From a virus (lineage: Duplodnaviria; Caudoviricetes): 57,352 nt of DNA. Both the position numbers and the translations under genes were made by a program. Below are positions 6,168-49,496 of this stretch, piece by piece. Under the pieces are notes generated by a model. That model was not told where the DNA came from, did not search any database, and was given only the letters and a program-made list of their open reading frames with translations. Location: the IMG/VR virus record IMGVR_UViG_3300044960_000873, positions 1 through 57,352 of that record, one strand, 5' to 3'. Each line of letters starts with the position of its first letter. Within the stretch, counting starts at the first letter, position 1.

Positions 6168-6614
6168 ATGCGCTACCTGGCTGTTGCCCTCATCATCTGG
6201 GGCGCTATCGCCTGTGGCGGCCGGCGAGAACTGTCCGAGCAGGCCTACGCCGAGCAGGTGCAGGAATACACCGCCACACTGGCGGATGCGATTGCCGAGA
6301 TCCGTCGCCTGTTGACCGACGCGGAACAGCGCGTCGCGCTGATCCTGAATGACGCGTGGCGCGCCGATATCCAGGCGCAGTTCGCTATCGTGCACGGCGC
6401 GGCGGACGATGTCGCGAACATGCGCCCCCCAGAGCGTTTTGCCGAGGCGCATCGTGCGCTCGAACGCGCCACCGAGTGCTACGCCGATGCCACCGATCTG
6501 TTGCGGGATGCACTGGCAACGCCGCCAGTCGCCTCCGCTATGGTGGTTAGCATGCTGCTCTCGTGCAACGATCTCATGCAGGACGCGCTCGTCGCGATGC
6601 AGCGGGTGCGCTAA
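6168..6614 (+). CDS. Putative lipoprotein moron inserted antisense in the tail operon
   Basis: Signal peptide with lipobox-like AIA-C (MRYLAVALIIWGAIACGG); GAGAGGGAG RBS. Confidence 0.7.
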   Translation: MRYLAVALIIWGAIACGGRRELSEQAYAEQVQEYTATLADAIAEIRRLLTDAEQRVALILNDAWRADIQAQFAIVHGAADDVANMRPPERFAEAHRALERATECYADATDLLRDALATPPVASAMVVSMLLSCNDLMQDALVAMQRVR

Positions 6615-30596: not shown

Positions 30597-30808
30597 GCCG
30601 CGCCGCGTTCCTGGTCGCTGGCCAGGAACTCGTGCGGCAGTTGCAGGACCCGAGCCGCCTCGCGGGCGAACTGCTCGGTCATCGGGTAGCGGCCGGCCAG
30701 GATGCGCGAGACCGTCTCGCGCCGATACCCGGTGGCATCGGCCAGCCACACCGTCGTGCGGCCCTGCACCTGGAGCACGCGGCGCAGTTTGCGCCGGTCG
30801 AACGCCAT
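30593..30808 (-). CDS. Cro-like repressor
   Basis: Small HTH (WLADATGYRRETVSRIL) divergent from cI. Confidence 0.8.
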   Translation of the reverse strand: MAFDRRKLRRVLQVQGRTTVWLADATGYRRETVSRILAGRYPMTEQFAREAARVLQLPHEFLASDQERGAA

Positions 30809-30825
30809 GCCCACCTCCCGTTCGG

Positions 30826-30935
30826 CTCATCATGGATATATCACGTTGTCATGCATGATACGGTGATGCCCGTGAGAATGTCAATGGTCTGTGGTATGGA
30901 TATTCACGTGAACACACGTGATATCAAACTCACGT
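30826..30935. promoter_or_regulatory. Lysis/lysogeny switch: leftward promoter and operator-like repeats
   Basis: Minus strand TTGACA(30884-30879)-N18-TATCAT; repeated GATAT(A)TCACGT motifs. Confidence 0.7.
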
Positions 30936-31591
30936 TCGGGGAATGGCTGGACGATCAGCTCGTCGCGGCTGGGTACAACCAGACCACGTTCGCCGAGGCG
31001 ATCGGGGTTGCCCAAAGCGCGGTGAACCAGTGGGTGAATAACGTCCAGCCGCCGAGCCGGCGCAACGTCGCCCGCATCGCCCGCGCACTGAACATGGCGG
31101 CATCCGACATCGAGGCCCGGATCGATCGACGCCGGAGAGGAGGTCTGCATGCTGCCACTGCTGTCCGGGTCGCCCGGAATGTCGCCACGTTCAGGGTGCA
31201 CGGCGTTGTTCCCGCCGATGCATTCCGTTGGGCCGACAGTGGAGGCGAGTGCGGCGAGGTGGATGTTCCACTATCCTGGCTGCAAGGCCGCGACCAACGC
31301 GAGTTTTTCGTCGTCGAGGTCTCCGGGGATTGTCTCAGTTCCCTCGGCATTGGCGATGGCGCGTATCTGTTCTGCCAGCGCGCCACGCGGTTGCCGCGTG
31401 ACGGCGACCTGGTCATCGTCCGCATCGGGGACGAGGTAACCTGCAAACGCTGGCGCTGGGCGGGTGGGCGCGTGGAACTCGTCGACGGCGACGAGCGCGT
31501 CGTCTATTCCTGTGACCCGCGCTCCAGCGAACTGCACGTCGAGGGCTACGTCATCGCCGAGATCCAACCCCACGGCAGCGTGCACACATGA
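30896..31591 (+). CDS. CI-like repressor (XRE HTH plus S24 peptidase)
   Basis: HTH NQTTFAEAIGVAQSAVNQW; S24-like VSGDCL and VTCKR (Cys at the usual catalytic Ser position). Confidence 0.88.
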   Translation: MDIHVNTRDIKLTFGEWLDDQLVAAGYNQTTFAEAIGVAQSAVNQWVNNVQPPSRRNVARIARALNMAASDIEARIDRRRRGGLHAATAVRVARNVATFRVHGVVPADAFRWADSGGECGEVDVPLSWLQGRDQREFFVVEVSGDCLSSLGIGDGAYLFCQRATRLPRDGDLVIVRIGDEVTCKRWRWAGGRVELVDGDERVVYSCDPRSSELHVEGYVIAEIQPHGSVHT

Positions 31592-31762
31592 TCCCAGGCG
31601 CGGTGACGCCGGCCGAGCCACACCACCACCGCGCGACCCGGCCGACGCGCCCCGCGAGGCGGCAATCAGCCTAATCAGCCACGCCGTATCCGTCCAGTAG
31701 GCCAAACGTCCTAGGAGCGCCCTCGCCATGCACACGGCTATGCCCAACCGTTCCGCTGCGCT

Positions 31763-32869
31763 ATGACCCGCGATTACCCCGGCGTGCGCATCCTCCCCTC
31801 GGGCGCGATCGCCTACACGATCCGCGAACCCGACCATGCGGGGATCGTCCGCCATCGCACGATCACCCGCGACCAGGTCACCGGCGAACCGTTCCGCACC
31901 CCGGCCGCCGCCCATCGCGCCCGGTTGCGCCACCAGGCGCGCATCGCCGCCGGCCAACGTCCCCGCTCGCGCGAAACAACCGGGAGCTACGCTCGCGCCT
32001 GGCTGCGAACCAGGCGCGACCTGAAGCCCTCCAGCCTGCGCGTCTACCGCTACGCCGTCGAGCAGGTCGTCGCCGGGCTGGGGGAGATCTCCCTCGCCGA
32101 GCTGCGGCCGTCCGATGTACGTCGTTTCCTCGACATGCTCGTCCAGCGCGGTCTCGCCCCGCGCTCGATCCGCCTGATCCACACCGTCCTACATATGCTC
32201 CTGGAGGCGGCGCTGGCCGACGATCTCGTCGGCCGCAACCCCGCCCGGCGCGTCCATCCACCGAGCGTGACCAAACACGAGGTCGTCGTCTGGCAGCCCG
32301 AGGAGATCCGCCGCTTCCTCGCCGTCGCCGACGCGCATGCATACGCCGCGCTCTGGCGGCTCGCGCTGGAGACGGGCATGCGCATCGGCGAGTTGCGCGG
32401 GCTGAGCTGGCGCGACATCGACCTCGCCGCCGGCCAACTCACCGTGCGCCGCACCGCGACCGTCGATGACCGAGGAAGGGCGATCCTCGGCGACAGCCCG
32501 AAGTCGCCGGCCGGCCGGCGGACGCTGCCCCTCTCCCCCCGCGTGGTCGCGCTCCTCGCTGCCCAGCGGGCCAACGCCACGAGTACGCTGGTGTTCCCCG
32601 GCCCCTCGGGCGACCTGCTGCGCCGCGACACGCTGGGCCGCTGGTTCCGCGCGCTCGTCGCCGAAGCCGGCGTGCGCCCGATCCGGCTGCACGACCTGCG
32701 CCACACCGCAGCGACCATCCTCCTGCTGCAGGGAGTCCCGGTGCACGTCGTCGCGGCGGTGCTGGGTCACAGCAACCCGAGCGTCACCCTCGCCGTCTAT
32801 GCCCACCTGATCCCCGGTTCGACCCGCGACGCGCTCGAGCTGCTGGCGCGCTACCTCGACGCCATGTAG
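31763..32869 (+). CDS. int: Tyrosine integrase
   Basis: TGMRIGE, PKS, HDLRHT, LGHS, VYAH catalytic motifs. Confidence 0.96.
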   Translation: MTRDYPGVRILPSGAIAYTIREPDHAGIVRHRTITRDQVTGEPFRTPAAAHRARLRHQARIAAGQRPRSRETTGSYARAWLRTRRDLKPSSLRVYRYAVEQVVAGLGEISLAELRPSDVRRFLDMLVQRGLAPRSIRLIHTVLHMLLEAALADDLVGRNPARRVHPPSVTKHEVVVWQPEEIRRFLAVADAHAYAALWRLALETGMRIGELRGLSWRDIDLAAGQLTVRRTATVDDRGRAILGDSPKSPAGRRTLPLSPRVVALLAAQRANATSTLVFPGPSGDLLRRDTLGRWFRALVAEAGVRPIRLHDLRHTAATILLLQGVPVHVVAAVLGHSNPSVTLAVYAHLIPGSTRDALELLARYLDAM

Positions 32870-37802: not shown

Positions 37803-38123
37803 ATGTACACCATCACCGAGATTCGCCTGCCGGCGCAAAGCCGCCGGATAGTCTGGAGGGGCGAAGACCTCGGCCAGGCGGTCATGGCCCTCGAGGCCAT
37901 CGCTGCCGAGGCCATCGACGACGCCCAGTACTGGCCCGAGTCTGCCGAGGTCGTGACGTACTGGCCGAGCGGCAACCGCCGCGACCGGTACGTCCTCCGG
38001 GACGAGGACGGCCTCGTCCCCTACGAGATCGACCCCTGGCGCGGGTGCACGGCCCGGCGCGAGGTCGCGCACATCGCGCTCGCCGGCATCGCCGTGCGCG
38101 ACCAGCGCGTCGGCCCCGCCTAA
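37803..38123 (+). CDS. Hypothetical protein
   Basis: AAGGA RBS; follows paralog B. Confidence 0.6.
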   Translation: MYTITEIRLPAQSRRIVWRGEDLGQAVMALEAIAAEAIDDAQYWPESAEVVTYWPSGNRRDRYVLRDEDGLVPYEIDPWRGCTARREVAHIALAGIAVRDQRVGPA

Positions 38124-38184
38124 TCGTTCAGCACGCCGGCCCGGCTCACCACCGGGCCGGCGGGGAGGAGATTGTGGGGGAGCA

Positions 38185-38580
38185 ATGACCAACGACCTGC
38201 TCACCCTCGCTCAGGCGGCCCAACTGGCCGGGGTCAACCCTGCCAGCCTCCGCCGCGCCATCGCGCGCGGCACCCTCGCCGCCACCAAATACGGCAAAAC
38301 CTATCTCGTCACGGCTGACGAGATCGCCCGCTTCATCCGCGAGCGCCGGTTCGCGGACCGCAGGAGGGAGATACCCGGTATGCGCATGTACGTCACCGAG
38401 TCCCTCCCCAACCACTGGGTCATCAACGACGCCACCGGGTGGTGGCTCGTCCCCAACGTCCCCGGCGGCTGGACCCGCCGCACCGCCTATCGCGGACACG
38501 TCGCCAGCCTCGCCCCCGTTTCCGTCGGCGTCGCCGCGGGTATGGCCCGCCTCGTCGGTTACGAGGAGCCCACGCCATGA
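38185..38580 (+). CDS. HTH_17/excisionase-like DNA-binding protein
   Basis: LLTLAQAAQLAGVNPASLRRAIARG; ATGA-coupled to tnpB. Confidence 0.8.
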   Translation: MTNDLLTLAQAAQLAGVNPASLRRAIARGTLAATKYGKTYLVTADEIARFIRERRFADRRREIPGMRMYVTESLPNHWVINDATGWWLVPNVPGGWTRRTAYRGHVASLAPVSVGVAAGMARLVGYEEPTP

Positions 38581-39761
38581 CCGACGCCACCCGCACCTAC
38601 CGGTTCCGCCTCTACCCCACGCCATCCCAGGCGGCCCGCCTCGACCTCTGGCTGATGCGCTGCCGCCATCTCTACAACGACATGCTGACCCAGCGCATCT
38701 GGTCATGGCAGACGCGCCGGGTATCGATCACCTATTACGACCAGCAGAACGCGCTGCCGGAAATCCGGCGCGCATTCCCGGAGTACGCCGAGCTCCCCTC
38801 GAACGTGCTCCAGAACGTCGCCCGCCGTGTCGATATCGCCTATCAGCGTTTCTTCCGGCACGGCGCGGGGTTCCCCAAATATCAGGGGTTCCGCCGCTAC
38901 AACTCGTTCTGCCTCCACTCCCCCAGCGGCTGGAAGCTCCGCCCCGGCCCCGGCCGCATGGGCCGGCTCTCGATCCTGCGCCTGGGGGATATCCCCGTGC
39001 GCGTCCACCGTCCAGTCGCGGGAGAATTGCGCACCTGCACCATCGTGCGCCAGGCCGGCCGCTGGTATGCCTGCATCACCGCCCGCCACGTGCCCATCCC
39101 CGAACTCCCGGCCAGCCCAGCCGCGGTCGGCGTCGACCTGCGCGTGGCCGAGCATTTCCTCGCTACGAGCGACGGGGAGTTGATCGACAACCCCCACCCG
39201 CTGGAGCAGGCATTACGCGACCTCGCCCGCATCCAGCGCACGGTCTCTCGCCGGCAACGCGGCAGCAACCGGCGCGAGGACGCCGTGCGCCAGCTCCAGC
39301 GGGCGCATCAGCGCGTCGCCAACCTGCGGCGCGAGTTCCACCACCGCCTCAGCCACGACCTGGTGACGCGTTACCAGGTGATCGTCGTCGAGGACATCTC
39401 CCCCCTGTTCATGGTCGAGCGCGCGCAACGCGACCCCTACCCGCGCAACCAGGCGCGGCGCGCGCTCGACTCCGGCTGGGGGCAGTTCCTCGGTCTGCTG
39501 GAGTACAAATGCCGCGACCTGGGGCGGATGTTCATCCGCGTCGAGCCGGCCATGACCAGTCAGACCTGCTCGCGCTGCGGGGCCGAGCACGATACCGGCC
39601 CAACCGAACGTATATTCCGTTGTCCGCAGTGTGGATGGGAGGTGCACCGGGCGATCAACGCTGCGCGCAATATCCTGGCGCGTGGCCTGGAGTTGGAGTA
39701 TCATTGCACCAACAGCCGACTACCGGCTGACGGGGACGGGGGGCAATGGCCCCCCGGATGA
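38577..39761 (+). CDS. tnpB: TnpB-family RNA-guided protein, predicted nuclease-dead
   Basis: TYRFRLYPT N-terminus, RuvC-I VGVDLR, RuvC-II VVED, TSQTCSRC/CPQC zinc finger, RuvC-III HRAINAARNI lacking the Asp. Confidence 0.92.
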   Translation: MTDATRTYRFRLYPTPSQAARLDLWLMRCRHLYNDMLTQRIWSWQTRRVSITYYDQQNALPEIRRAFPEYAELPSNVLQNVARRVDIAYQRFFRHGAGFPKYQGFRRYNSFCLHSPSGWKLRPGPGRMGRLSILRLGDIPVRVHRPVAGELRTCTIVRQAGRWYACITARHVPIPELPASPAAVGVDLRVAEHFLATSDGELIDNPHPLEQALRDLARIQRTVSRRQRGSNRREDAVRQLQRAHQRVANLRREFHHRLSHDLVTRYQVIVVEDISPLFMVERAQRDPYPRNQARRALDSGWGQFLGLLEYKCRDLGRMFIRVEPAMTSQTCSRCGAEHDTGPTERIFRCPQCGWEVHRAINAARNILARGLELEYHCTNSRLPADGDGGQWPPG

Positions 39762-39812
39762 ACCGTGGACTTCGCGCCCGTGGAGGTGAGCGATCCCGCG
39801 TACGAACGAGGT

Positions 39813-40024
39813 GTTCCGCCCACGCGTGCGGGGAGTAGGCGACAATCACCCAGTCGTTCTCCGAGTACAAGACGTTCCGCCCACGCGTGCGGGGAGTAGG
39901 CGTTCGCCATGGCCACGATATCTTTGGCGAGCTCGTTCCGCCCACGCGTGCGGGGAGTAGGCGGCAGCACCGTAATAGCAACCACGCGCCAAGTCGTTCC
40001 GCCCACGTGTGCGGGGAGTAGGCG
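39813..40024 (+). CRISPR. CRISPR mini-array: 4 repeats of 29 bp and 3 spacers of 32 bp, plus a degenerate trailer
   Basis: GTTCCGCCCACGCGTGCGGGGAGTAGGCG at 39813, 39874, 39935, 39996 (last with 1 mismatch); exact 61-bp period; remnant GCGAGGAATAGGCG ending at 40060. Confidence 0.93.
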
Positions 40025-40121
40025 AAATGCGCTGGATGCCTGTGCCGCGAGGAATAGGCGTAGACGCTGCCGGCCAGCACGCCGGTCCACTCGATGCAGT
40101 GCTGGTGTGACGAGGAAACAT

Positions 40122-40151
40122 AAGCCCCGCTACCACCCGGTAGCGGGGCTT
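40122..40151. terminator. Hairpin between convergent transcription units
   Basis: 13-bp perfect stem AAGCCCCGCTACC/GGTAGCGGGGCTT. Confidence 0.7.
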
Positions 40152-40216
40152 CGTTCATCAGCGTGCGATTGCCTCTACGCTAGGCTCCCTCGTCCCCATG
40201 GCGCGGGCGTGGAGTG

Positions 40217-40530
40217 TCAAAAAATGCCATTAATTCGGCGTCTGAGGGCAATCGGATCCGTCAGGTAGCGGTAGACGGTGCGCTCTGCGACGCCGAGCGC
40301 GCGGGCGATATCCCTGCGGGTCAGGCCCTGGCGGTCGAGTTCGTGCGCGCGGGCGACGCGTTCGCGGTGTCTCGTCTGGTGGCTCCCAACGCGCCGTGGC
40401 CTGGCCGGCGCGGGTCGATGTCGCCGGCGAGGATGCGGTCGATCACGGCGCGGACGACAACGAACCGGCTGCCCAGGTTGTCAAGGCCATAAAATGACAC
40501 GAATCCTGCATCCCGCATGCCAGGGCTCAC
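40217..40530 (-). pseudogene. Frameshifted resolvase-type HTH gene
   Basis: HTH GLTRRDIARALGVAERTVYRYL lies in a frame without its own start, overlapping ORF 40321-40530. Confidence 0.45.
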
Positions 40531-41192
40531 CACGGCGTCACCCGCTCTCCCAGTCTCCACACCGCCTCCGCCGCCAGCGCCCGCAGCCGGCCCAGCCCGT
40601 ATGTCGTATGTTTCCCTACCCCGCGATACTCCCCGAACCGCGCCAATAGCCACAGCGTCGCCAGGTCCTCCGCATCCACCCGCGAGCCGTCGAAGCGCAC
40701 CACCCCCACGAACCCGCGCTGCGGCTTCCCTCCGGCGATCGGCAGCGTCGCGTAGCGCAACACCTCCGGCACCACCCCCACCCGGCGCACATCCGGGTAC
40801 GCGATCTCGCCGCCCAACGCCCGCCAGCGTTCCACCAACGACCCGAACACGTGGAACGCGTCCGGCGTCTGCACCTCCAGCCCCGCCGTGCGGAAATGCG
40901 TCGGCGTCTCGAACGCCAGCCGCAGCGTCCGCGGCAAATCACCAGCCGGCGACAGGTCAGCCAACCGCGCGCGCCGCACCAACCGCGCCCCCGGGTCTCC
41001 CAGCAGTAACGCCCGCGTCAGGTCATCCTCGAACGACACGACATCGATCGTCCGGGCCCGCACGACCACGCTGTATGGCCGTACCGCATCCCCCGCGTGC
41101 AGCCGGTCGGCCAGCTCCAGGTCGACCCGCCCCACCGTGCTCATCACCCGCTCGATCGGCCCACGCCCCGTCGCGTCGGACAACCTCACCAC
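40527..41192 (-). CDS. cas6: CRISPR pre-crRNA processing endoribonuclease Cas6
   Basis: RPYS, LAFETPTHF, GFVGVVRF and C-terminal G-loop GVGKHTTYGLG. Confidence 0.88.
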   Translation of the reverse strand: MVRLSDATGRGPIERVMSTVGRVDLELADRLHAGDAVRPYSVVVRARTIDVVSFEDDLTRALLLGDPGARLVRRARLADLSPAGDLPRTLRLAFETPTHFRTAGLEVQTPDAFHVFGSLVERWRALGGEIAYPDVRRVGVVPEVLRYATLPIAGGKPQRGFVGVVRFDGSRVDAEDLATLWLLARFGEYRGVGKHTTYGLGRLRALAAEAVWRLGERVTPW

Positions 41193-41572
41193 CGTGACGC
41201 AGCCTGCCAGCGCCGCCACAGTTCCGGGTTGTGCTCCCGGCAGAGCCGCTCCACCTCCTCCGGCGCGATCAGCCACCACGCATGGTGCGCCCGCCGGCGT
41301 GGCTTCACCCGCCGCGCCCGGATCCGTTTCTCCCGCGCCAGCCGCGCCAGCCACTGGGGCGTATACCCCGTCACCAGCGCCGCTTCCCCCGTCGTGTACC
41401 AGCCTCGCTGTTGCGTTTTCCAGATGCGCAGCCGCCAGCGCCAGTTCTCCAGCGTCCGCGGCGCGATCCCCAGCCGTCTCGCGATCCAGCGGTCCGTGCG
41501 CGTCGCGCCCCATCGGCTCAGCGCCTCCTCCACCTCAGCCCGTCGCCGGCGTTGGGTCCTGTTGCTCCCCAC
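41186..41572 (-). CDS. HTH DNA-binding protein
   Basis: IARRLGIAPRTLENW and YTTGEAALVTGYT; coupled to cas6. Confidence 0.7.
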   Translation of the reverse strand: MGSNRTQRRRRAEVEEALSRWGATRTDRWIARRLGIAPRTLENWRWRLRIWKTQQRGWYTTGEAALVTGYTPQWLARLAREKRIRARRVKPRRRAHHAWWLIAPEEVERLCREHNPELWRRWQAASRW

Positions 41573-41846: not shown

Positions 41847-42461
41847 TCATTCCGCCGGCCACCCGAACGTTACGCTCACCACCCCACGCCGGCTCCCCAC
41901 CGTCGAGCCGATGTCCCGGTGTTGCGCCAGATTCGGCAGCGCCACATAGAGCATCTCCCCATGCGCCCGCAGGTACTCGCGCAGATGCACATCCCAGCCG
42001 TGGTGCGGCGACGGCCAATCCCGCACGCCCTCCGCGATCCGCCGCGGCAGCAGCACCGCGATCGTCCCCACCCAGATGCGCAGCGAACGCAGTCGGTCGA
42101 TACACGCCCGGATCGGCCGGCCGGCGTCCAGCGCCCGGTTCACCCAGGCCGGGTGGTAATAGCGCGCCGCCGTGAACAACGTCACCGCCACGTCCGCCGC
42201 CAGCAGCTGCGGCAACCGCGTCGCCAGGCTGGGACAGATATCCGCGTCGTCCTCGACATACAGCAGGTGCGTCGCATCCGGGCGCGCGTGCAACCCCAGC
42301 GCCACTGCCCGGTCGGCCGTCCGCCGCTGCGCCCGGTGGTTCGTCGGCTCCTCCGCCGCCTGCACCGTCACCAACGGCGGCAACCCCAGCCGTTCGAGTT
42401 GGCGCACCGTGTCCCGCAGCGCCTCCGCCCGGCTCCAGACGCTGGGGATGACCGTAACCAC
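41847..42461 (-). CDS. GT-A fold glycosyltransferase
   Basis: LLYVEDDA, WD, PNLAQH...STVG motifs; start inferred. Confidence 0.7.
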   Translation of the reverse strand: MVTVIPSVWSRAEALRDTVRQLERLGLPPLVTVQAAEEPTNHRAQRRTADRAVALGLHARPDATHLLYVEDDADICPSLATRLPQLLAADVAVTLFTAARYYHPAWVNRALDAGRPIRACIDRLRSLRIWVGTIAVLLPRRIAEGVRDWPSPHHGWDVHLREYLRAHGEMLYVALPNLAQHRDIGSTVGSRRGVVSVTFGWPAE

Positions 42462-42712
42462 CCGCGCCGGTGCGTCAGATGGTCCAGCAACACATGCCGG
42501 CCCCACGCCCGCGCCGGCCGGCAGGGGAGCGCGAGCAACAGCACCCACGCCGGGTGATGCGTCAGCCGATGCAGCCGGTACAGCCGCGACCGGCTCGGGT
42601 GCACGCGTCGCGTCAGCAACACCGCCATCAGCAGTGGCGCATCCGGCGCGATCCCCCACACCCGGTCCATATACCAATGCGTCCCCAGGCAGGCCATCAA
42701 CTGAACCCCCAT
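42368..42712 (-). CDS. Small His-rich membrane-bound metal-dependent hydrolase-like protein
   Basis: H...APD...HRLTH...HVLLDHLTH pattern. Confidence 0.5.
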   Translation of the reverse strand: MGVQLMACLGTHWYMDRVWGIAPDAPLLMAVLLTRRVHPSRSRLYRLHRLTHHPAWVLLLALPCRPARAWGRHVLLDHLTHRRGWLRSSPASGAGRRRCGTRCANSNGWGCRRW

Positions 42713-43422
42713 TGCCGGCCATAGCGCGCCTCCAGCCGCTCCATCAGCCCCGGCCACCCCTGACGCAACACCCAGGCATCGGACAACGGCAACGGCCCCA
42801 CCCGCCACGTCTCGCGCGGCATCCCCAGGCGCGCATACACGTCGTACGCCGGGTGGTAGTGCAGCCCCCGGTCGCCGATATAGGCCCAGATATCGGCATC
42901 GCTCCAGCGCCGCAGCGGCCATGCCCGCCATTGCCCATCCACCGCCTGGAACAACCCGCCGAACCGGCGGGTGGCGATGCGCCGGTGCCGCGCCTCGGCC
43001 GCCCGGATGCCCACGAGACAGCCGTCATACCCAGCCGTCAGCGACCAGGGTTCCATCTCCTGCCCGATCCAGCGCATTTGCGGCAACGGCTCGCGCCAGA
43101 ACGGCTCCTCCCGCCAGGGGTCGAACCACCCCGCGTGCCGCGCCCACCCCTGCACCACCTGCAGCTCGGGGAAGCTCAGCACGAACTCCTCTTCGCCGGG
43201 GTGGATCAATTCGTCGTCGGCCCAGATCGCGGTGATCCCCGGCCGCACTAGGCGCGCTAGGTCGAGCACCACCAGCGAATCCTTCCCCCCGCTGAATGCC
43301 ACGTACCAGCGACGCCCCAGCTCCAGCGCCGTCTCGATCTCCCCGATCGCCCGGTCTACCCGCTGGCGGAACGGGCGCGTGCGTGCATGCAGCGCGTCCT
43401 CGCGCCGCAACGCCGCCCCCAT
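42697..43422 (-). CDS. cysH: CysH-like PAPS reductase-family protein (type IV-B ancillary)
   Basis: PP-loop AFSGGKDS, GIRAAEA, PLRRWSDADIWAYI, YHPAYD; directly after csf3. Confidence 0.9.
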   Translation of the reverse strand: MGAALRREDALHARTRPFRQRVDRAIGEIETALELGRRWYVAFSGGKDSLVVLDLARLVRPGITAIWADDELIHPGEEEFVLSFPELQVVQGWARHAGWFDPWREEPFWREPLPQMRWIGQEMEPWSLTAGYDGCLVGIRAAEARHRRIATRRFGGLFQAVDGQWRAWPLRRWSDADIWAYIGDRGLHYHPAYDVYARLGMPRETWRVGPLPLSDAWVLRQGWPGLMERLEARYGRQWGFS

Positions 43423-43424
43423 GC

Positions 43425-44093
43425 TCAGCGCAACTCCGGCATGAAACACCGCGTCCGTTGCTCTGGTCGCCGCCCCGGTGGACGAATCCCCCAGTCCATC
43501 TGCGTCCCCGGCCCCAACTGCCCCATGTGCGCCGCCGCGAACTCCACCGGCAGCGGCCGGCGGAACCGCGCGATCGCCGCGTCGCCCCCCGGCTCCACCG
43601 TCCAGGCGCGCACCTGCCCCCAGCCATGCGCATATCCCGCGCCAATGTTGTGGCAGCGCGCCAGCAGCCGGCGCAGCTCCGCCGCATCGCCGATCGCGTG
43701 CCAGCGCACCCACGGCGTGACGATGCGCGTGTGTCGCGTGCGGTAGGCCTTGTACGGCCCGCCGGCGGTCAATACCCGCCGCACCGTCTCCGGCGTAAAC
43801 CCCAGCGCCGGGCCGTCGTCGAACCGCCGGTGCGTCCACGACTCGAACGTCGCCCGCGCCTCGGCCAGCGGTGAGGAAACGCACCACCACCAGTGCCCCT
43901 CCCACGATTCCCGCGCCAGCGGCAGTTCCGCCTCGACCACCGGCCGATGCCCGGTCATGCCCAGCGCGAATTCCTCCTCCCCCAGTTGCTCGCGCAGCGC
44001 CCAATAGGCCAGGATGCCCTCCAGCGCCGGCGACCACGGGTCGGAGGCCGCATACCCATTCACGAGCCACGCCGTCACCAGCAGCGGCTCCAT
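43425..44093 (-). CDS. csf3: Type IV Cas5-like subunit Csf3
   Basis: LEGILA, G-loop IGAGYAHGWGQV, RPLP, GIRPP. Confidence 0.88.
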   Translation of the reverse strand: MEPLLVTAWLVNGYAASDPWSPALEGILAYWALREQLGEEEFALGMTGHRPVVEAELPLARESWEGHWWWCVSSPLAEARATFESWTHRRFDDGPALGFTPETVRRVLTAGGPYKAYRTRHTRIVTPWVRWHAIGDAAELRRLLARCHNIGAGYAHGWGQVRAWTVEPGGDAAIARFRRPLPVEFAAAHMGQLGPGTQMDWGIRPPGRRPEQRTRCFMPELR

Positions 44094-44587
44094 CAGGTCA
44101 CCTCATGGCCGATCGTGTCCAACACCGTCTCGAACCGCCGCTCGGCCGGCCGTTCCCGCTCCAGCCGGTCGCGCACCAGCGCGATCACCAGCGACGACTG
44201 CGTGTTGTAGATATCGAGCACCCGCCGGTGGTCCACCCGGCGCAACACCCCGGTGAGGAATTCGCGCTGCTCCGGGTCCGCTCCCGGCTGGATGTACTCC
44301 CCCTCCGCCGTCTCCACCAACGGGATCACTCCACGAATGCCCACCTCCACCGCCCTGGGGTGGAGCGAGCCACAGGCCAGCCTGGGCATCAACCGGTCGA
44401 GGAACTCCGGCAACGTGCGCGAGCGTTTCGCCGATGCGCGCACGAACCGCGCGACCTGGCTCCAAACGTCCGGCGTGATCTTGAACCGGTTGCGGTCCCG
44501 CGAGCGCCAGGTGGCATACACCAGCAACGCCGCCGTCGCCTCATGCAGATCCCCGGTGTCGAACCCGTAGATGTACTCCCCGCTCAC
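44093..44587 (-). CDS. cas11: Type IV-B small subunit Cas11
   Basis: Alpha-helical 164 aa protein between csf2 and csf3, translationally coupled to both. Confidence 0.7.
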   Translation of the reverse strand: MSGEYIYGFDTGDLHEATAALLVYATWRSRDRNRFKITPDVWSQVARFVRASAKRSRTLPEFLDRLMPRLACGSLHPRAVEVGIRGVIPLVETAEGEYIQPGADPEQREFLTGVLRRVDHRRVLDIYNTQSSLVIALVRDRLERERPAERRFETVLDTIGHEVT

Positions 44588-45579
44588 GCGCCGGCTCCGA
44601 TCATGCGGCGGATCTCCGGTTGGTTCGCGTCCAGCATTGCGTCGTAAATCCCGCGCAGGTGCTGGTCATAGGCATCCTTCGCCGACGCCGCCGGCAGGCT
44701 CAACAAACACCGGTCGGCGACGGTGACGAATTCGGGCACCACCTCTCCCGTATCCAGGTCCCCCAACACCGTCTCCAGCGTCACCAGCCCATGCCCCCGG
44801 TTCGCCTGTCCGCCGATGTGCGGCGAGCGGCTGAACGTATGCAGCCCCGAAACCAGGCAGCCCAGTTCCACATCGGTCACGTCGAGCAGGTCGATGTGCG
44901 CCAGCAATTGCGTCCCCGCTGCGAGCAGCTCCACCGTCATGCGCATCTGCTGCGCCGGCGCATCCCCCCGCGCCGGTTTCGACTCGTCGCTGGGCAACAA
45001 CGCCCCCTGGGTCAACGCCGGAGCCGATTGCGCCAGGTACGGCAGGTAGGCGGGGTCTTTCGCGTCGTCCTTGCGCGAGAACGATTTCTCGAACGTCAGC
45101 GCCGCGTAGGAGACGGTCGTCGTCAGGCGGTGGAACGGATCAATCGCCGGCAGCGCCTCGACGCATACCGGGTAGGCGTTGGATACGCGCATTTTCCCCG
45201 GCAGCACCTGGTTGCCGATCCCCCCGCCTAGCAGCGCCAGCATCGGCAGCAGCCGGCGATACGCCCGCGCTACCCCCAGGTCGGTCTGCTGTTGCCCACC
45301 GATCGCGCCGCCGGAGAACAACAGGTGGAACGCGTCCAGCGAAATCACCGGGTTGCCCAGACGCTGGAGCAAATACGTCGCCATCAGGTCGCGCAATTGC
45401 CCCCGCCAGGCGTTGCCTGAGTAGCAGAATACCCTCGCGACTGACTCGTCCGGCTGGAGGATCGGCTCCTCCACCAGGAATGACGTCGTCGATTCCGACT
45501 CGCCGATGTGCGAGAGCGGGCTACGTAGGGTGAACCGTTGCAGCAGGCGCAGATTGCGCGTGCGCGTCGTCGTCTCCAT
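44584..45579 (-). CDS. csf2: Type IV Cas7-like backbone Csf2
   Basis: SPLSHIG, SGNAWRGQLRD, LFSGG, LLGG, G-loop IGGQANRGHG. Confidence 0.92.
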   Translation of the reverse strand: METTTRTRNLRLLQRFTLRSPLSHIGESESTTSFLVEEPILQPDESVARVFCYSGNAWRGQLRDLMATYLLQRLGNPVISLDAFHLLFSGGAIGGQQQTDLGVARAYRRLLPMLALLGGGIGNQVLPGKMRVSNAYPVCVEALPAIDPFHRLTTTVSYAALTFEKSFSRKDDAKDPAYLPYLAQSAPALTQGALLPSDESKPARGDAPAQQMRMTVELLAAGTQLLAHIDLLDVTDVELGCLVSGLHTFSRSPHIGGQANRGHGLVTLETVLGDLDTGEVVPEFVTVADRCLLSLPAASAKDAYDQHLRGIYDAMLDANQPEIRRMIGAGA

Positions 45580-46327
45580 CCAACCTCCGGGCGATATGCA
45601 ATACCAACCGGAACAGGTCGCGTTCGTAGTTGCGCCAGTGGACGAGTTCGGCATCCAGCCGCCGCCACTCCCGGATGCCCAGCCTGGCGATACGGTGCGG
45701 TGGCGGCTCTCCGCTGAATACGTCATCGCGGGTCAGCCCCGCCGCCAACGCCGCCTCCACCGCCGTCAGGCACGCGCGCAGTCGCTCGCGGTCCACGATC
45801 AACGTGTCCTCCTCGACCTGCACCGGGAACGTACCGCTGCTGTAGGCGATCTGGGCGCGGAAGATCGTGTGTTTCTGCCCCGTCAGGGCGATGCAGAGCA
45901 CGAACGGAGGCGCTGGGGGATCGAGCAACGACTCGCGCAGGTCGGCGCGCCCCAGCCGGCGGTGGCCACTGGGGATGCCTGGGGAGAACGCATGCGAGTA
46001 ATTGCGCCAGCCGAGCCGCTGGGAGGCTGGGGGCGGCTGCCCCGCGCGCGCCAGGTGGTCGCGCCACCCCTCGTTCGTCGAGAGATAGACGCACGCCTGG
46101 CACACCGTCTGCGACGTCGGCACGGCCGCCGCGTTCACGTTGGTGAACGTCGCCGGGTCGAACGCCGGCCGGCCACGCTGGGGCCAGCCCACCCCGCCGG
46201 TCTCGCCGCCACATAACCAGCAGGCCGGATCAGCCCCATACCGCTCCCCGCGTTTGGGGATTGGCGGGCGCCATTCGGGTGATCCAATCAGCCGGTGCGC
46301 CAGTTGCGGCGCGCTGAACACGCGCAT
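45521..46327 (-). CDS. csf1: Type IV Cas8-like subunit Csf1
   Basis: CWLCG, CQAC, LLDPPAPPF, GQKH. Confidence 0.85.
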   Translation of the reverse strand: MRVFSAPQLAHRLIGSPEWRPPIPKRGERYGADPACWLCGGETGGVGWPQRGRPAFDPATFTNVNAAAVPTSQTVCQACVYLSTNEGWRDHLARAGQPPPASQRLGWRNYSHAFSPGIPSGHRRLGRADLRESLLDPPAPPFVLCIALTGQKHTIFRAQIAYSSGTFPVQVEEDTLIVDRERLRACLTAVEAALAAGLTRDDVFSGEPPPHRIARLGIREWRRLDAELVHWRNYERDLFRLVLHIARRLDGDDDAHAQSAPAATVHPT

Positions 46328-46333
46328 GTGCAC

Positions 46334-46565: not shown

Positions 46566-47849
46566 TTACTGCGAACCCGGCAGGCGCACCAATGTCGCCC
46601 GTCCAAATCCCAACGGCACGTCGCTGCCGTCGTCGTCGCGCCAGATATCCCAGGCGTAATCGCTGCCTGCCGCCAGATTCGCCGGCCACGCCGTGTCCGC
46701 GATGGTCATGTCCACGATCCGGTTTGCCGCGTCATTGATCGTCACCGCTGGGGAGAGCACTGTCTGTGCCGGATTCGACCGCCGCGCGATTTCGCTCCGG
46801 AACGTTTGCCCCGCAATGCTCCCCGTGCCCTGGATCGTCATCCGCACTACCTGGTCGCTGCCGATGTACAGCGTGATGTCCGTCTCGACCGGCATGTCAT
46901 CATCTCCCATCACCGCAATGACTGCATCATTCCGCCCCGTCACCGCCACGATGCGGTCATCCCGGCCGCTCACCAGTACCAGCGCGTCGTCGCGCCCCGC
47001 CACGTGAATGACGCGCGGATCGCCCGGCGGCGGCGTCGATACCGAGCCGTCCGCCCGTACTTCGCATCCGCCGCTGAGCACGCCCGGAGCGCCTGTGCCA
47101 GCGAACGCCGCCGCACTGGCCACGCCGCCGGCCGCCAGCAGCGCCGCCGCGCTCGTCCCCAGTGTGGCCTCGGCCAGCAGCCGGTCTGCTCCATCCAGCC
47201 GCCCCGTGCCGCTCGTCCCCAGCGCCCCAGCGCCGGCCGTGCTCACATGCGCGACGGCACTGCCCGCAGCCAGGACATCCGCGCCAGCGTGCCCGGACAG
47301 CGATGCGCCGCCGGCCAGCAGCCCGTCCCCGAGCACCTCGTTGCCGCCGGAGATCGTCCCGTCGCCGGCTAGCGCCCCCGCGCTGGTGACCAGCGCCGCG
47401 CCCGTCGTCCCCAGCGCCCCAGCGCCGGAGAGCGCCGGCCGCTCCGCAATCAGGCCGTCGGCGACGACGCCCACCGCCGGCTGCGCCGTGGCCAGCGCGC
47501 CGACCGCGACGACCCCGCTGGCCACCACCTCGGGCGTCGCCGTCGCCGCAATCTGCCCCGTCGCCAGCGTCAGTCCCGCGCCGGGAATATCCGCCGCGCC
47601 AGCCGCCGTCAGCGTCGCCGCGCTCCCGAGCGCGCCTGGGGAAACCGTCTCGACCAGCGCTGCTGTCGCAAGCTGCCCCGTGGCGCTGACCGGAGCGCTG
47701 CCGGCCATCTCCAGCGTCGCCGCGCCAGCCAGATTCGGCGTCGCGCTCAGCAGCCCATCGCCGAATATCTCACCAGCCCCAGGCGCCGCCGATGGCAGGA
47801 ATCGCCGCCGCCGGCGCGGGCGATAAATTGTCCGTCGCCACGCCGGCAC
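46566..47849 (-). CDS. Ala/Gly-rich virion fibre-like protein with C-terminal beta domain
   Basis: Low-complexity repeats; position in the second structural cluster. Confidence 0.55.
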   Translation of the reverse strand: MPAWRRTIYRPRRRRRFLPSAAPGAGEIFGDGLLSATPNLAGAATLEMAGSAPVSATGQLATAALVETVSPGALGSAATLTAAGAADIPGAGLTLATGQIAATATPEVVASGVVAVGALATAQPAVGVVADGLIAERPALSGAGALGTTGAALVTSAGALAGDGTISGGNEVLGDGLLAGGASLSGHAGADVLAAGSAVAHVSTAGAGALGTSGTGRLDGADRLLAEATLGTSAAALLAAGGVASAAAFAGTGAPGVLSGGCEVRADGSVSTPPPGDPRVIHVAGRDDALVLVSGRDDRIVAVTGRNDAVIAVMGDDDMPVETDITLYIGSDQVVRMTIQGTGSIAGQTFRSEIARRSNPAQTVLSPAVTINDAANRIVDMTIADTAWPANLAAGSDYAWDIWRDDDGSDVPLGFGRATLVRLPGSQ

Positions 47850-47857
47850 GGGCTATT

Positions 47858-48349
47858 TCACTCCTCCTCGATCCAAAACGTCAGTTGCACGGTGATGTCG
47901 TCCGCCGGCGTCGTTTGCGAGCGCACGATCAGCGCTTCCCCCTGTTTCGCTTTCGGCGCGAACGCCGGGTCGGGAAACCAGAGGTCGAGCGGCGACAACC
48001 GGATATTCCAGCCGAATTCGGCCAGCGTCACCGCCGTGCCGGTCGTCGTCGCGACGGTCGCGTTGTTGCACTCGGCCGCGACGCCGGCCGCCGCGTCGGC
48101 GCTGTCCACCGGCGCGGGCGTCACCGCCGAGCCGCCCGAGCCGCTCGTCACCGTGGCCGGCAAGCGCAGGATGCTGATACGCAGCCCCTCCTCCGCCGCG
48201 TCGGCCACCTCGCTGATCTGCGAAAGCATGATCCCCCGCAACCTGACGGGTTTGTCATCCGCCGGCAGCAGCTCCAGCAGGTCGGCGTCGCCGCCGGCCG
48301 TGGCCAATGTGCCCTGATAGGCAACGGAGTAAATACGTCCCATACCCAA
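47858..48349 (-). CDS. Virion structural protein
   Basis: Beta-rich; coupled within the cluster. Confidence 0.55.
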   Translation of the reverse strand: MGMGRIYSVAYQGTLATAGGDADLLELLPADDKPVRLRGIMLSQISEVADAAEEGLRISILRLPATVTSGSGGSAVTPAPVDSADAAAGVAAECNNATVATTTGTAVTLAEFGWNIRLSPLDLWFPDPAFAPKAKQGEALIVRSQTTPADDITVQLTFWIEEE

Positions 48350-49496
48350 TGCTCCTGATCCACACGCGCGTAGCCCGCCGCCGGATTGGCAGCGACGCAG
48401 CAGCCGCGCCAGTCGCCGTCGGACAGACCAGCGTGATCCACGACACGCGCAGCGTCGTGCTCGCGCCTGTTCCGGTCGCGTTGCACGTCACCCGCACCCG
48501 CAGGTTGCTGTAGTCCGTGATCGCCGCCGCCTCGCTCGTTGTCAGTCGGTAGCCGAGCAGCTGCCAGGCGGTCGTCGCGCTGGTGATGTTGCTCACCGTG
48601 CGCGTGGCGATCTGCGTCGTCCCCTGGTACACCTCGATCTGCAGCGACAGCGTACGCCCGCCGGAGACGAACTGCGCGTACACCATGACCACGTGGTCGT
48701 CATCCACGCTGGGCGCCGAGAGACTTCCCAGCGCCACCTCGAACGCTGCGTTGTTCGGGTTGCCCGGCGTCGTCACGTAGGTCGTCGTGTCGATCGCCGT
48801 CGCCGCCTCGTCCAGCGCCTCGTGCACCGTCGAGGCCCCCGTGATCGTCCACGACCCGGAGTTCGAGACGGTCGAGGTCGGCAGCGCGTGCTGCAGGTCC
48901 CCGGCCGTCCAGTCGTCCCCGCGCATGCTCTGGTTGCCGACGCCCCCGTCCCAGGCAGCCACTCCTGGCTGGCCGCTGGTCAGGTTGCCATCGACGACCC
49001 CGTATTCGCGCTGCTCAGCCACATCTCGCGCATACAATTCGCCGGTGAGCAGCGGTAACAGCGCCTGTCCCACGACGTACAACGCGATGTCGTCGCTCGT
49101 CGTCAGGTCAGGCGGCGTGGCAAATCCCGTGCCTGTATTGCTCAGCTCGCTGAATGTGCCCGAGTGTCGGAACGTCCAGGCGGCGTTGCCGTTGCCCTGG
49201 ACGTAAAACCCGTAATACGCGCTGCTGCCCGCCGCGCCCATGCGCACGCCCACGCCGAGGCCAGAATCCTGCGCTGCCACGCTGGCGAACCGCAGCCGCG
49301 CAAAATGGTTGGCGCTGAACGATGCGGACGACGTTTTCCAGCGCGCGCCAACGTCGTCGTTGGTCGTTCCGTCCCAGGTCAGCCCGTTCGACTGCACCTG
49401 GAGGTCGGAACCGCTGCCGCGCACGTACTCCCAATTGGCCAGCGAAGAAATCGCCGTGCCGTTAGCGGCCGTGAAATTCTCGCTGGCCGTGGCCAT
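48255..49496 (-). CDS. Lectin/beta-sandwich-like virion or adsorption protein
   Basis: Ser/Thr/Gly-rich beta-strand composition. Confidence 0.55.
   Translation of the reverse strand: MATASENFTAANGTAISSLANWEYVRGSGSDLQVQSNGLTWDGTTNDDVGARWKTSSASFSANHFARLRFASVAAQDSGLGVGVRMGAAGSSAYYGFYVQGNGNAAWTFRHSGTFSELSNTGTGFATPPDLTTSDDIALYVVGQALLPLLTGELYARDVAEQREYGVVDGNLTSGQPGVAAWDGGVGNQSMRGDDWTAGDLQHALPTSTVSNSGSWTITGASTVHEALDEAATAIDTTTYVTTPGNPNNAAFEVALGSLSAPSVDDDHVVMVYAQFVSGGRTLSLQIEVYQGTTQIATRTVSNITSATTAWQLLGYRLTTSEAAAITDYSNLRVRVTCNATGTGASTTLRVSWITLVCPTATGAAAASLPIRRRATRVWIRSIGYGTYLLRCLSGHIGHGRRRRRPAGAAAGG

Follow-up and report, generated by a model that had tools for sequence, protein, structure and literature searches.

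The window analyzed here is the whole of the IMG/VR virus record IMGVR_UViG_3300044960_000873 (57,352 bp, completeness estimate 83%, GC content 68%), in which a solo tnpB gene, whose product has lost one of its three catalytic RuvC residues, ends 51 nt before a small CRISPR array. The reading that we favor, with moderate confidence, is that this TnpB is a domesticated, TldR-like protein that lies beside, but does not use, the array of a phage CRISPR-Cas system that is of type IV-B and has its own Cas6. On this view, a temperate phage would hold two adjoining RNA-guided modules in its accessory region. The first would be a type IV-B-like system set apart from nearly all other type IV-B loci by a cas6 of its own and a small array, which would be transcribed from the tnpB side along the plus strand; the precursor CRISPR RNA would be cut by Cas6, the resulting 32-nt guides would load the Csf complex, and new spacers would enter beside tnpB through the Cas1-Cas2 proteins of the host, which are invoked because the phage is without cas1. 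The second would be the domesticated TnpB, most likely a TldR-like DNA binder, whose single guide RNA may derive from the 3′ end of tnpB together with the 51-nt gap, and which probably does not use the array spacers.

The array (39813–40024, plus strand) was delimited by repeat search and consists of four 29-nt repeats, starting at 39813, 39874, 39935, and 39996 with a period of 61 bp, the fourth with one mismatch, and of three 32-nt spacers (39842–39873, 39903–39934, and 39964–39995). It is followed by a truncated last unit (40025–40060) made up of 17 nt and a degenerate 3′ half-repeat at about 40042–40060. A first-pass annotation of the window had placed the first repeat 52 bp past the tnpB stop codon and the degenerate repeats at the distal end, and both statements agree with these positions. 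The spacers are mutually unrelated (5–12 of 32 nt identical) and have a GC content of 50–59%, compared with 68% for the record, and therefore look acquired. In another metagenome, run X7, which is not marked as a possible source, a 266-nt contig covers positions 39874–40139, and the neighboring genes are covered error-free. All differences between this contig and the window (18 listed substitutions and 2 indels) fall within 39904–39933, i.e., in spacer 2, and no change is seen in repeats 2–4, in spacer 3, or in the half-repeat and the tail that follow; since the differences are confined to one spacer, the replacement, seen in a single contig at a depth of 4.2, is not sequencing noise. Apparent joints in the same comparison with sequencing runs (38095 to 40562 and others) have sides of 22–24 letters with 80% likeness and were taken as foreign or repeat matches, and stretches that lack cover in runs X10 and X11 carry no information. 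The element hence displays the identical repeats, the unique spacers of fixed length, the degenerate distal repeat, and the spacer difference between populations that characterize a CRISPR array. Taken together, these sequences indicate ongoing spacer acquisition, and the turnover of a leader-proximal spacer points to acquisition of the Cas1-Cas2 type. As a side observation, the spacer ends (39866–39873, 39927–39934, and 39988–39995) read CAAGAC, GAGCTC, and CAAGTC; all end in C and two fit CAAG.C, which could be a sequence derived from the protospacer-adjacent motif, a trace of slipped acquisition, or chance.

The exchange of spacer 2 while the older end is shared, together with the degenerate distal units, indicates that the leader faces tnpB. 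At the opposite end, toward cas6, the array is followed by a GC-rich hairpin of 13 bp (40122–40151), identified by folding and conserved in L012, a related syntenic phage on a 51-kb contig with a DNA identity to the window of about 80–88%. The first-pass annotation had described a strong hairpin following the array, and this stands with respect to stability (the surrounding 66 nt have a folding energy of −40.3 kcal/mol, a value that none of 200 shuffles reached; z −6.75); however, the sole terminator-like call in 38000–40700 is this hairpin read on the minus strand, where it has a T-rich tail. The hairpin could terminate transcription either way, although its T-tail is better on the minus strand, and a minus-strand terminator in this position speaks against transcripts of the cas operon reading through into the array. 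Given this terminator and a leader on the tnpB side, transcription of the array most likely follows the plus strand and comes from inside tnpB or from upstream of it, and co-transcription with tnpB, as proposed in the first-pass annotation, is plausible because the leader is on that side.

The first-pass annotation had assigned the array to TnpB. This assignment is not supported, because next to the array, on the other strand, lie cas6 and a complete operon of type IV effector genes that also includes a cysH-like gene, none of it reported at the time. The cas6 gene (40527–41219; PF10040, E-value 6.2e-17; PADLOC Cas6, E 2.7e-19), with its start set according to the 230-residue database protein P0121, begins 376 bp past the hairpin on the minus strand, and the type IV cas operon lies beyond it on the same strand. 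This operon contains a cysH-like gene of the PAPS reductase family (42697–43431; PF01507, E 2.2e-12), csf3 (type IV Cas5; 43425–44093; PADLOC typeIV_Cas5, E 1.8e-37; TIGR03116, E 7.6e-11), the type IV cas11 (44093–44587; PADLOC typeIV_Cas11, E 5.8e-42), csf2 (type IV Cas7; 44584–45726; PADLOC typeIV_Cas7, E 1.3e-57; TIGR03115, E 4.5e-17), and csf1 (type IV Cas8-like; 45521–46333; PADLOC typeIV_Cas8, E 2.2e-28; TIGR03114, E 1.6e-15). The cysH-like gene sits between csf3 and cas6, and two open reading frames (ORFs) of unknown kind are also part of the operon. Assignment to type IV is based on PADLOC and on gene order. No helicase or further accessory family was found among the scanned ORFs between 40.5 and 50.4 kb, and cas1 gave no match in the record.

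The combination of csf1, cas11, csf2, csf3, and a cysH-like gene with no helicase match is that of type IV-B. According to the available portions of PMC8175902 and 10.1101/780106, a cysH-like gene marks this subtype, and type IV-B loci are described there as being without a CRISPR array and without Cas6, with ‘rare exceptions’. Both are present here (cas6 at 40527–41219 and the array, with its truncated unit, at 39813–40060), and the locus is therefore classified as a variant of type IV-B. Related viral loci also have cas6. In the viral record G185, csf1-cas11-csf2-csf3-cas6-cysH follow one another in one row (locus L054, 2341–7092), with a Cas6 that is 50% identical to that of the window; in the viral record G186, cysH and cas6 occur together. 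Separately, the Cas6 protein P0124 is 77% identical to that of the window. Judging from gene content, cas6 belongs stably to this viral type IV lineage, and the G185 operon, as an observation in its own right, suggests that cas6 is a regular component in a lineage of viral type IV-B loci. For the array, the best explanation is that it belongs to an unusual type IV-B system, carried by the phage together with its own Cas6.

The alternative that survives this evidence best is that the mini-array is serviced by the host, in that a class 1 (type I-E-like) Cascade and Cas6e of the host would use the array, and the phage type IV-B complex would act independently of it. A 29-nt repeat with a 32-nt spacer, i.e., a 61-bp unit, is the type I-E format, and such lengths also occur in type IV arrays that borrow I-E or I-F adaptation. 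The alternative further gains from the lack of cas1 in the phage and from relatives that have the same cas6-bearing type IV-B operon without an array. Type IV-B complexes bound non-CRISPR RNA in the one structure study (PMC8175902). However, searches for the repeat in 184 genomes from the phylum of the candidate host, and in the metagenome-assembled genome (MAG) G001, did not find it, the cas1 contig of this MAG starts with an unrelated repeat, and the phage encodes a Cas6 of its own 376 bp past the post-array hairpin. We consider servicing by the host a realistic, though minority, possibility.

The candidate host itself is tentative: the L012 contig is titled as belonging to the Candidatus Fraserbacteria MAG G001, and binning of phage contigs is unreliable. 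On contig C17 of G001, the MAG that contains the related phage L012, a cas1 gene is present (locus L047, 8200–9045), and positions 1–93 of the same locus hold two copies of an unrelated 27-nt repeat, 66 bp apart; there is therefore at least one host-side CRISPR system, with a repeat differing from that of the phage array. No array with the phage repeat was found in G001 or in viral contigs. Distant Cas6 matches occur in 20 of the 184 phylum genomes, with no arrays within the short loci that were retrieved.

We now turn to the second module, whose tnpB gene (38577–39761, plus strand) encodes 394 residues. The protein contains the Pfam domains HTH_OrfB_IS605, OrfB_IS605, and Cas12f1-like_TNB, matches the NCBIfam model guided_TnpB with 267.9 bits (cut-off 100), and aligns over residues 6–370 with the ISDra2 TnpB chains 8h1j and 8bf8 (E 3.3e-42). 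The PADLOC models for Cas12f and Cas12u also match (E 3.7e-55); these models match TnpBs generally. The first-pass annotation had reported that the RuvC-I Asp and the RuvC-II Glu are kept and that RuvC-III reads HRAINAA, which the alignment bears out: D187, E272, and the zinc-finger cysteines are retained, and A359 stands opposite the second D of the ISDra2 DRD motif in both chains, so that the third residue of the RuvC D-E-D triad, expected to be intact in the TnpB family, is here Ala359. Its codon, GCG at 39651–39653, is indeed two changes away from Asp (GAT or GAC), and the substitution is no sequencing error, as HRAINAA is also found in the two next-closest proteins (73% and 56% identity). 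The DLR in place of DLG at RuvC-I, likewise pointed out earlier, is real and common to 6 of the 120 best hits.

Conservation of the active site was assessed by counting columns in a MAFFT alignment of the best 120 TnpB hits, the window protein (P0001) included. The RuvC-I column has D in 119 of 120 and the RuvC-II column E in all 120, and the RuvC-III column has D in 117 and A in 3, the latter being the window protein and its two nearest relatives, P0002 (73% identity) and P0003 (56%). The first-pass annotation had proposed a search of homologues for the same D-to-A change; it is present in these two relatives and in 0 of the 117 other best hits. Both P0002 and P0003 are full-length, with D187, E272, and the four zinc-finger cysteines kept. 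The next three relatives (46–51% identity) keep the RuvC-III Asp and share the RuvC-I DLR and an insertion after RuvC-II. Furthermore, dN/dS, the ratio of non-synonymous to synonymous substitution rates, for tnpB codons 1–68 between the window and L012 is 0.21, compared with 0.10–0.38 for eight neighboring genes, which include cas genes and the integrase gene. The low ratio implies that purifying selection acted on tnpB during most of the period after the window and L012 split, and that the deletion of tnpB in L012, described below, is recent. The D-to-A change is, as judged from alignment and substitution rates, a real, conserved, and selected state.

The genetic setting of tnpB is not that of a transposon. 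Only one tnpB copy is present, and neither the Y1 transposase of tnpA (PF01797) nor a serine recombinase catalytic domain (PF00239) was found in the 57,352-bp record, in agreement with the earlier statement that tnpA is missing. The ATGA overlap with an upstream gene was also described correctly: the TGA stop of an HTH_17 gene (38185–38580, plus strand; MerR/excisionase-like; PF12728, E 4.2e-10) overlaps the tnpB ATG, and because the start codon overlaps this phage gene, there is no left end left. The right-end motif of relatives (GGGGAG..GTCAC) is absent at the window tnpB. The GC content at third codon positions is 0.84, like that of the neighboring genes, and tnpB is therefore not a recent arrival. 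The HTH_17 gene also stands upstream of tnpB in L012 (85% amino acid identity), and the 47%-identical L006 tnpB has an HTH_17-like ORF upstream of it that matches weakly (E 1.2e-4, below cut-off). With no tnpA, no left end, and purifying selection, TnpB looks domesticated and TldR-like, and since the loss of the RuvC-III Asp is conserved and selected, a TldR-like role is the best guess for its function.

Could tnpB instead be a stranded, decaying, and functionless IS200/IS605 remnant that happens to lie beside the array leader? A single copy with no tnpA, the loss of one catalytic residue, and the deletion of most of the gene in a related phage that kept its neighbors would all fit such a fate. 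However, the ORF is intact, full-length proteins with identities as low as 56% show the D-to-A change as well, the 68 codons open to comparison give a dN/dS of 0.21, the overlap of the start codon with a phage gene upstream leaves no left end, and codon usage matches that of the phage. A remnant is hence unlikely.

The D-to-A change also bears on the nuclease state. No acidic residue near the RuvC motifs was found that is conserved in P0001–P0003 only, the sole candidates (339 and 344) lying in the zinc-finger loop; this lack of a compensating residue makes loss of DNA cleavage likely, as far as can be judged from the alignment. In the accessible sections of PMC8612924, Ala substitutions at the first two triad residues are reported to abolish ISDra2 TnpB activity. 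Retained nuclease activity, in a RuvC site rearranged so that the lost Asp is made up for by a different residue, would be compatible with the strict conservation of D187 and E272 and with TnpB branches that have conserved RuvC-III substitutions or rearranged sites and are thought to be active, as described in the available part of PMC10691335. Since the only acidic candidates specific to P0001–P0003 are the two in the zinc-finger loop and Ala is unable to bind metal, we hold the chance of retained cleavage to be slim.

A candidate for the guide RNA of TnpB lies at the 3′ end of its gene. Folds and structure alignment identify a stem-loop over the tnpB stop codon (39730–39766, plus strand) with a GGGGGGC/GCCCCCC core and an outer ACGG/CCGU stem, followed by TGAACCG, which may be the 3′ end of a guide-RNA scaffold. 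A similar hairpin with TGAACCG is found in the non-coding DNA after the L006 tnpB (25 of 35 nt), a weak similarity with a score at the 95th percentile of 500 shuffles. If 39730–39766 is the end of the scaffold, the guide would lie in the leader-proximal gap of 51 nt between the tnpB stop and repeat 1 (39762–39812), which would double as the array leader. The corresponding 16-nt candidate guide (39764–39779) has 4 matches in the window at up to 3 mismatches, one of them being itself, compared with 2.93 expected, and no match above chance was found in the candidate host MAG G001. Rfam gave nothing at gathering scores, and only weak, chance-level matches (E up to 10) in 39500–40200.

Whether TnpB has a share in the array was addressed through comparison of related loci. 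In L012, tnpB breaks off after codon 68 and runs straight into the 3′ 16 nt of a repeat, and the half-repeat with the downstream sequence (6205–6235), the hairpin, and cas6 are kept; one deletion therefore removed the rest of tnpB together with the whole array, and all cas genes stayed. Neither a TnpB nor an array was found in the viral records G185 (29% complete at 20 kb) and G186 (77% complete at 61.5 kb). TnpB could thus be read as forming one functional unit with the array, the two having entered the phage type IV-B locus together, with the RuvC-III-dead TnpB taking array guides or controlling the array. The 3′ end of the tnpB mRNA would then be guide-RNA scaffold and CRISPR leader at once, or, in the control variant, TnpB would govern the expression of, or spacer uptake into, an array that feeds the type IV-B complex. 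Were it true, a class 1 CRISPR system would, in either variant, have a TnpB tied into it, and the first variant would represent a dead transposon-to-CRISPR intermediate in a phage. Given the few loci, however, adjacency explains the co-variation as well as function does, and a single unit is, in our estimate, quite improbable.

Direct use of the array by TnpB would be expected to leave traces in sequence complementarity or ancestry, as in type V and TranC systems, in which the repeat is complementary or homologous to the scaffold or trans-activating RNA. No anti-repeat above shuffles was found in 38100–39812 or 40060–40560: the best scores are 15–18, and the shuffles have medians of 16–19 and 95th percentiles of 20–24, with three of the four best scores below the medians. 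A 24-nt inverted repeat was considered as an anti-repeat and rejected, as it includes spacer 3 and is hence not repeat-specific. The TnpB relatives (30–46% identity) have a right end of the form GAAGCCCC-loop-GGGGAG-NN-GTCAC, immediately after which the copies L018 and L019 diverge, and the array repeat contains GCGGGGAGT, for which reason descent of the repeats from the 3′ hairpin of the omegaRNA was tested. For this purpose, a covariance model built from 11 omegaRNA 3′ ends of the relatives was searched against the window with filters off; the 18 matches have E-values of 0.32–9.9, none of them lies in 39500–40100, and this derivation is rejected. A longer omegaRNA alignment of 105 nt has only 4 consensus pairs. 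With no anti-repeat and with a covariance model that misses the repeats, the window shows neither the complementarity nor the homology seen in type V and TranC systems. In L006, the only clade member with downstream DNA, no such repeat is present in the 123 nt after the tnpB stop. Apart from position, nothing was found that links TnpB to the array. According to 10.1101/780106, type IV arrays resemble co-occurring type I arrays in their repeats.

The first-pass annotation had seen in tnpB and array a candidate TnpB-to-Cas12 intermediate, or else a domesticated RNA-guided repressor with at least three guides; domestication and a TldR-like character are retained here, but array spacers as guides are unsupported, and so is an intermediate, given the lack of an anti-repeat and of an omegaRNA-end match, the class 1 format of the array, and spacer turnover. 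That the RuvC-III-mutant TnpB takes array spacers as guides, as a dead TranC- or type V-like intermediate or as a multiplex repressor, is the least probable reading of all, as the position of tnpB, which ends 51 nt ahead of repeat 1 and shares its strand with the inferred array transcript, the joint loss in L012 and joint absence from distant cas6-bearing type IV-B viral loci, and the CRISPR-RNA-using TnpB-to-Cas12 intermediates on record (LaTranC PDB chains; PMC13565253, in its accessible part) are set against a full type IV effector operon and cas6 adjoining the array, the missing anti-repeat and omegaRNA-end matches, a 29/32-nt format and spacer turnover that fit class 1 Cas1-Cas2, and the 123 nt downstream of tnpB in L006, which are free of such a repeat; that tnpB and the array co-vary is the reason for not rating it lower still.

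Several observations weigh against a TldR-like TnpB beside an independent type IV-B array. The presence of tnpB and array co-varies across the few loci at hand, both being found in the window, both lost through one deletion in L012, and neither found in G185 or G186, and the array could have arrived with tnpB. The loss of cleavage hinges on a single residue, no TnpB guide RNA was delimited, and no target was found in the window or in G001. On the side of the CRISPR-Cas module, the NCBIfam type IV matches (TIGR03114, TIGR03115, and TIGR03116) do not reach the curated cut-offs, and the repeat, whose fold is poor whichever way it is oriented, is matched by no CRISPR-DR family of Rfam. None of the spacers yielded a protospacer, with no self-match in the window; in strict searches, which do not demonstrate absence, the array region was unmatched in plasmid and phage collections, and no exact spacer 24-mer occurred in viral contigs. 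The repeat was also not found as an array in the 184 genomes of the phylum of G001.

The carrier is a temperate tailed phage, as deduced from the integrase, the CI-like repressor, the endolysin gene, and the tail-fiber-like gene encoded in the window. The lysogeny module (30632–32869, plus strand) comprises the CI-like repressor gene (HTH_3 and Peptidase_S24; 30632–31591) and the tyrosine integrase gene (31763–32869), and the tnpB/CRISPR region follows a few kb downstream, past small plus-strand ORFs of unknown kind. The sequencing runs that contain the stretch are labeled as hot-spring or microbial-mat metagenomes. Between the hairpin and cas6 lies the remnant of a resolvase-type HTH gene (HTH_7; 40220–40480, minus strand; PF02796, E 8.6e-08) with no start codon and no catalytic domain, a stretch that is replaced by other sequence in L012. 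A second HTH_17 gene (41186–41572, minus strand; PF12728, E 9e-07) is located operon-upstream of cas6, and the two HTH_17 genes, i.e., the plus-strand gene at 38185–38580 coupled to tnpB and this one, flank the junction of tnpB, array, and cas6. Minus-strand ORFs of 291, 427, 163, and 413 residues in or near the operon (41847–42722 and 46566–49496) have no Pfam, NCBIfam, or PADLOC match and could be accessory genes of the type IV-B variant.

Neither the single-protein query nor the clade alignment found any TnpB relatives in viral contigs, and the genome and metagenome scans returned only the truncated L012 gene, L006 on a short contig, and canonical insertion sequence (IS) copies, among them those of G053 and G088 in the phylum-genome scan. 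Three loci on metagenome and MAG contigs (L024, L014, and L025) share a sequence of about 150 nt upstream of tnpB and an N-terminus 56% identical to that of the window protein, and this group looks like a mobile IS family. The L025 tnpB has residues 97–293 deleted and keeps a canonical omegaRNA end and HRDHNAA.

Compared with type IV-B systems, the phage locus has the same five signature genes (csf1, cas11, csf2, csf3, and the cysH-like gene) in one minus-strand operon on a mobile element, with no helicase, nuclease, or cas1 found, but differs in having cas6 and an array with spacer turnover, and in being carried by a tailed temperate phage and not by a plasmid. The available text of PMC10848311 describes an atypical type IV-B locus with a mini-array in the archaeal virus Fuxivirus, with which the window shares a type IV-B system encoded by a virus, a cysH-like gene, a small array, and the lack of any protospacer found. 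Fuxivirus, however, is a virus of archaea whose array comprises two repeats with a single spacer, and the text consulted mentions neither cas6 nor TnpB, whereas the window locus has four repeats and a half-repeat, a cas6, and a tnpB at the leader. In the portion of PMC8175902 at hand, the guide RNA of type IV-B and the role of its cysH-like partner are described as open since the subtype was defined. A compact phage type IV-B locus with its own cas6 and a living array offers natural guides with which RNA loading, target binding, and CysH action could be tested.

TranC, type V-U, and Cas12f-like systems resemble the window in that a TnpB-sized protein is encoded directly upstream of a CRISPR array. 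They differ from it in that the window protein belongs to guided_TnpB of NCBIfam, no anti-repeat is present, the 29-nt repeat is class 1-like, and a class 1 effector operon lies next to the array, as does cas6; the LaTranC PDB chains match only the C-terminal 130 residues of the window TnpB (E 1.8e-11). With the tnpB stop 51 nt from the leader-proximal repeat, the locus is a natural case for the question of whether a TnpB and an array share a transcript or guides.

A close parallel to the window TnpB is provided by TldRs, which occur in prophages according to the accessible part of 10.1101/2023.11.30.569447, the source of the features used for comparison. Common to both are a damaged RuvC triad, the absence of tnpA and of a left end, a new gene neighbor, and the prophage setting, and the deterioration of RuvC is conserved within a clade in the window protein as well, HRAINAA being confined to P0001–P0003 (3 of the 120 best hits). 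In contrast to the truncated TldRs, the window TnpB has lost one of its three catalytic residues and has an intact zinc finger and C-terminus; it is without an identified guide RNA or promoter target, and its nearest relatives, by similarity and not by a tree, are ordinary IS605-type TnpBs and not the fliC, csrA, or oppF clades. Recent TldR work expects TnpB domestications yet to be found (PMC13622181, available text), and a conserved clade of RuvC-III-mutant TnpBs in a prophage accessory region is a candidate for a new one. A type IV-B system with natural guides and the gene of a putatively dead TnpB, ending at a CRISPR leader, make the locus worth a look at the bench.

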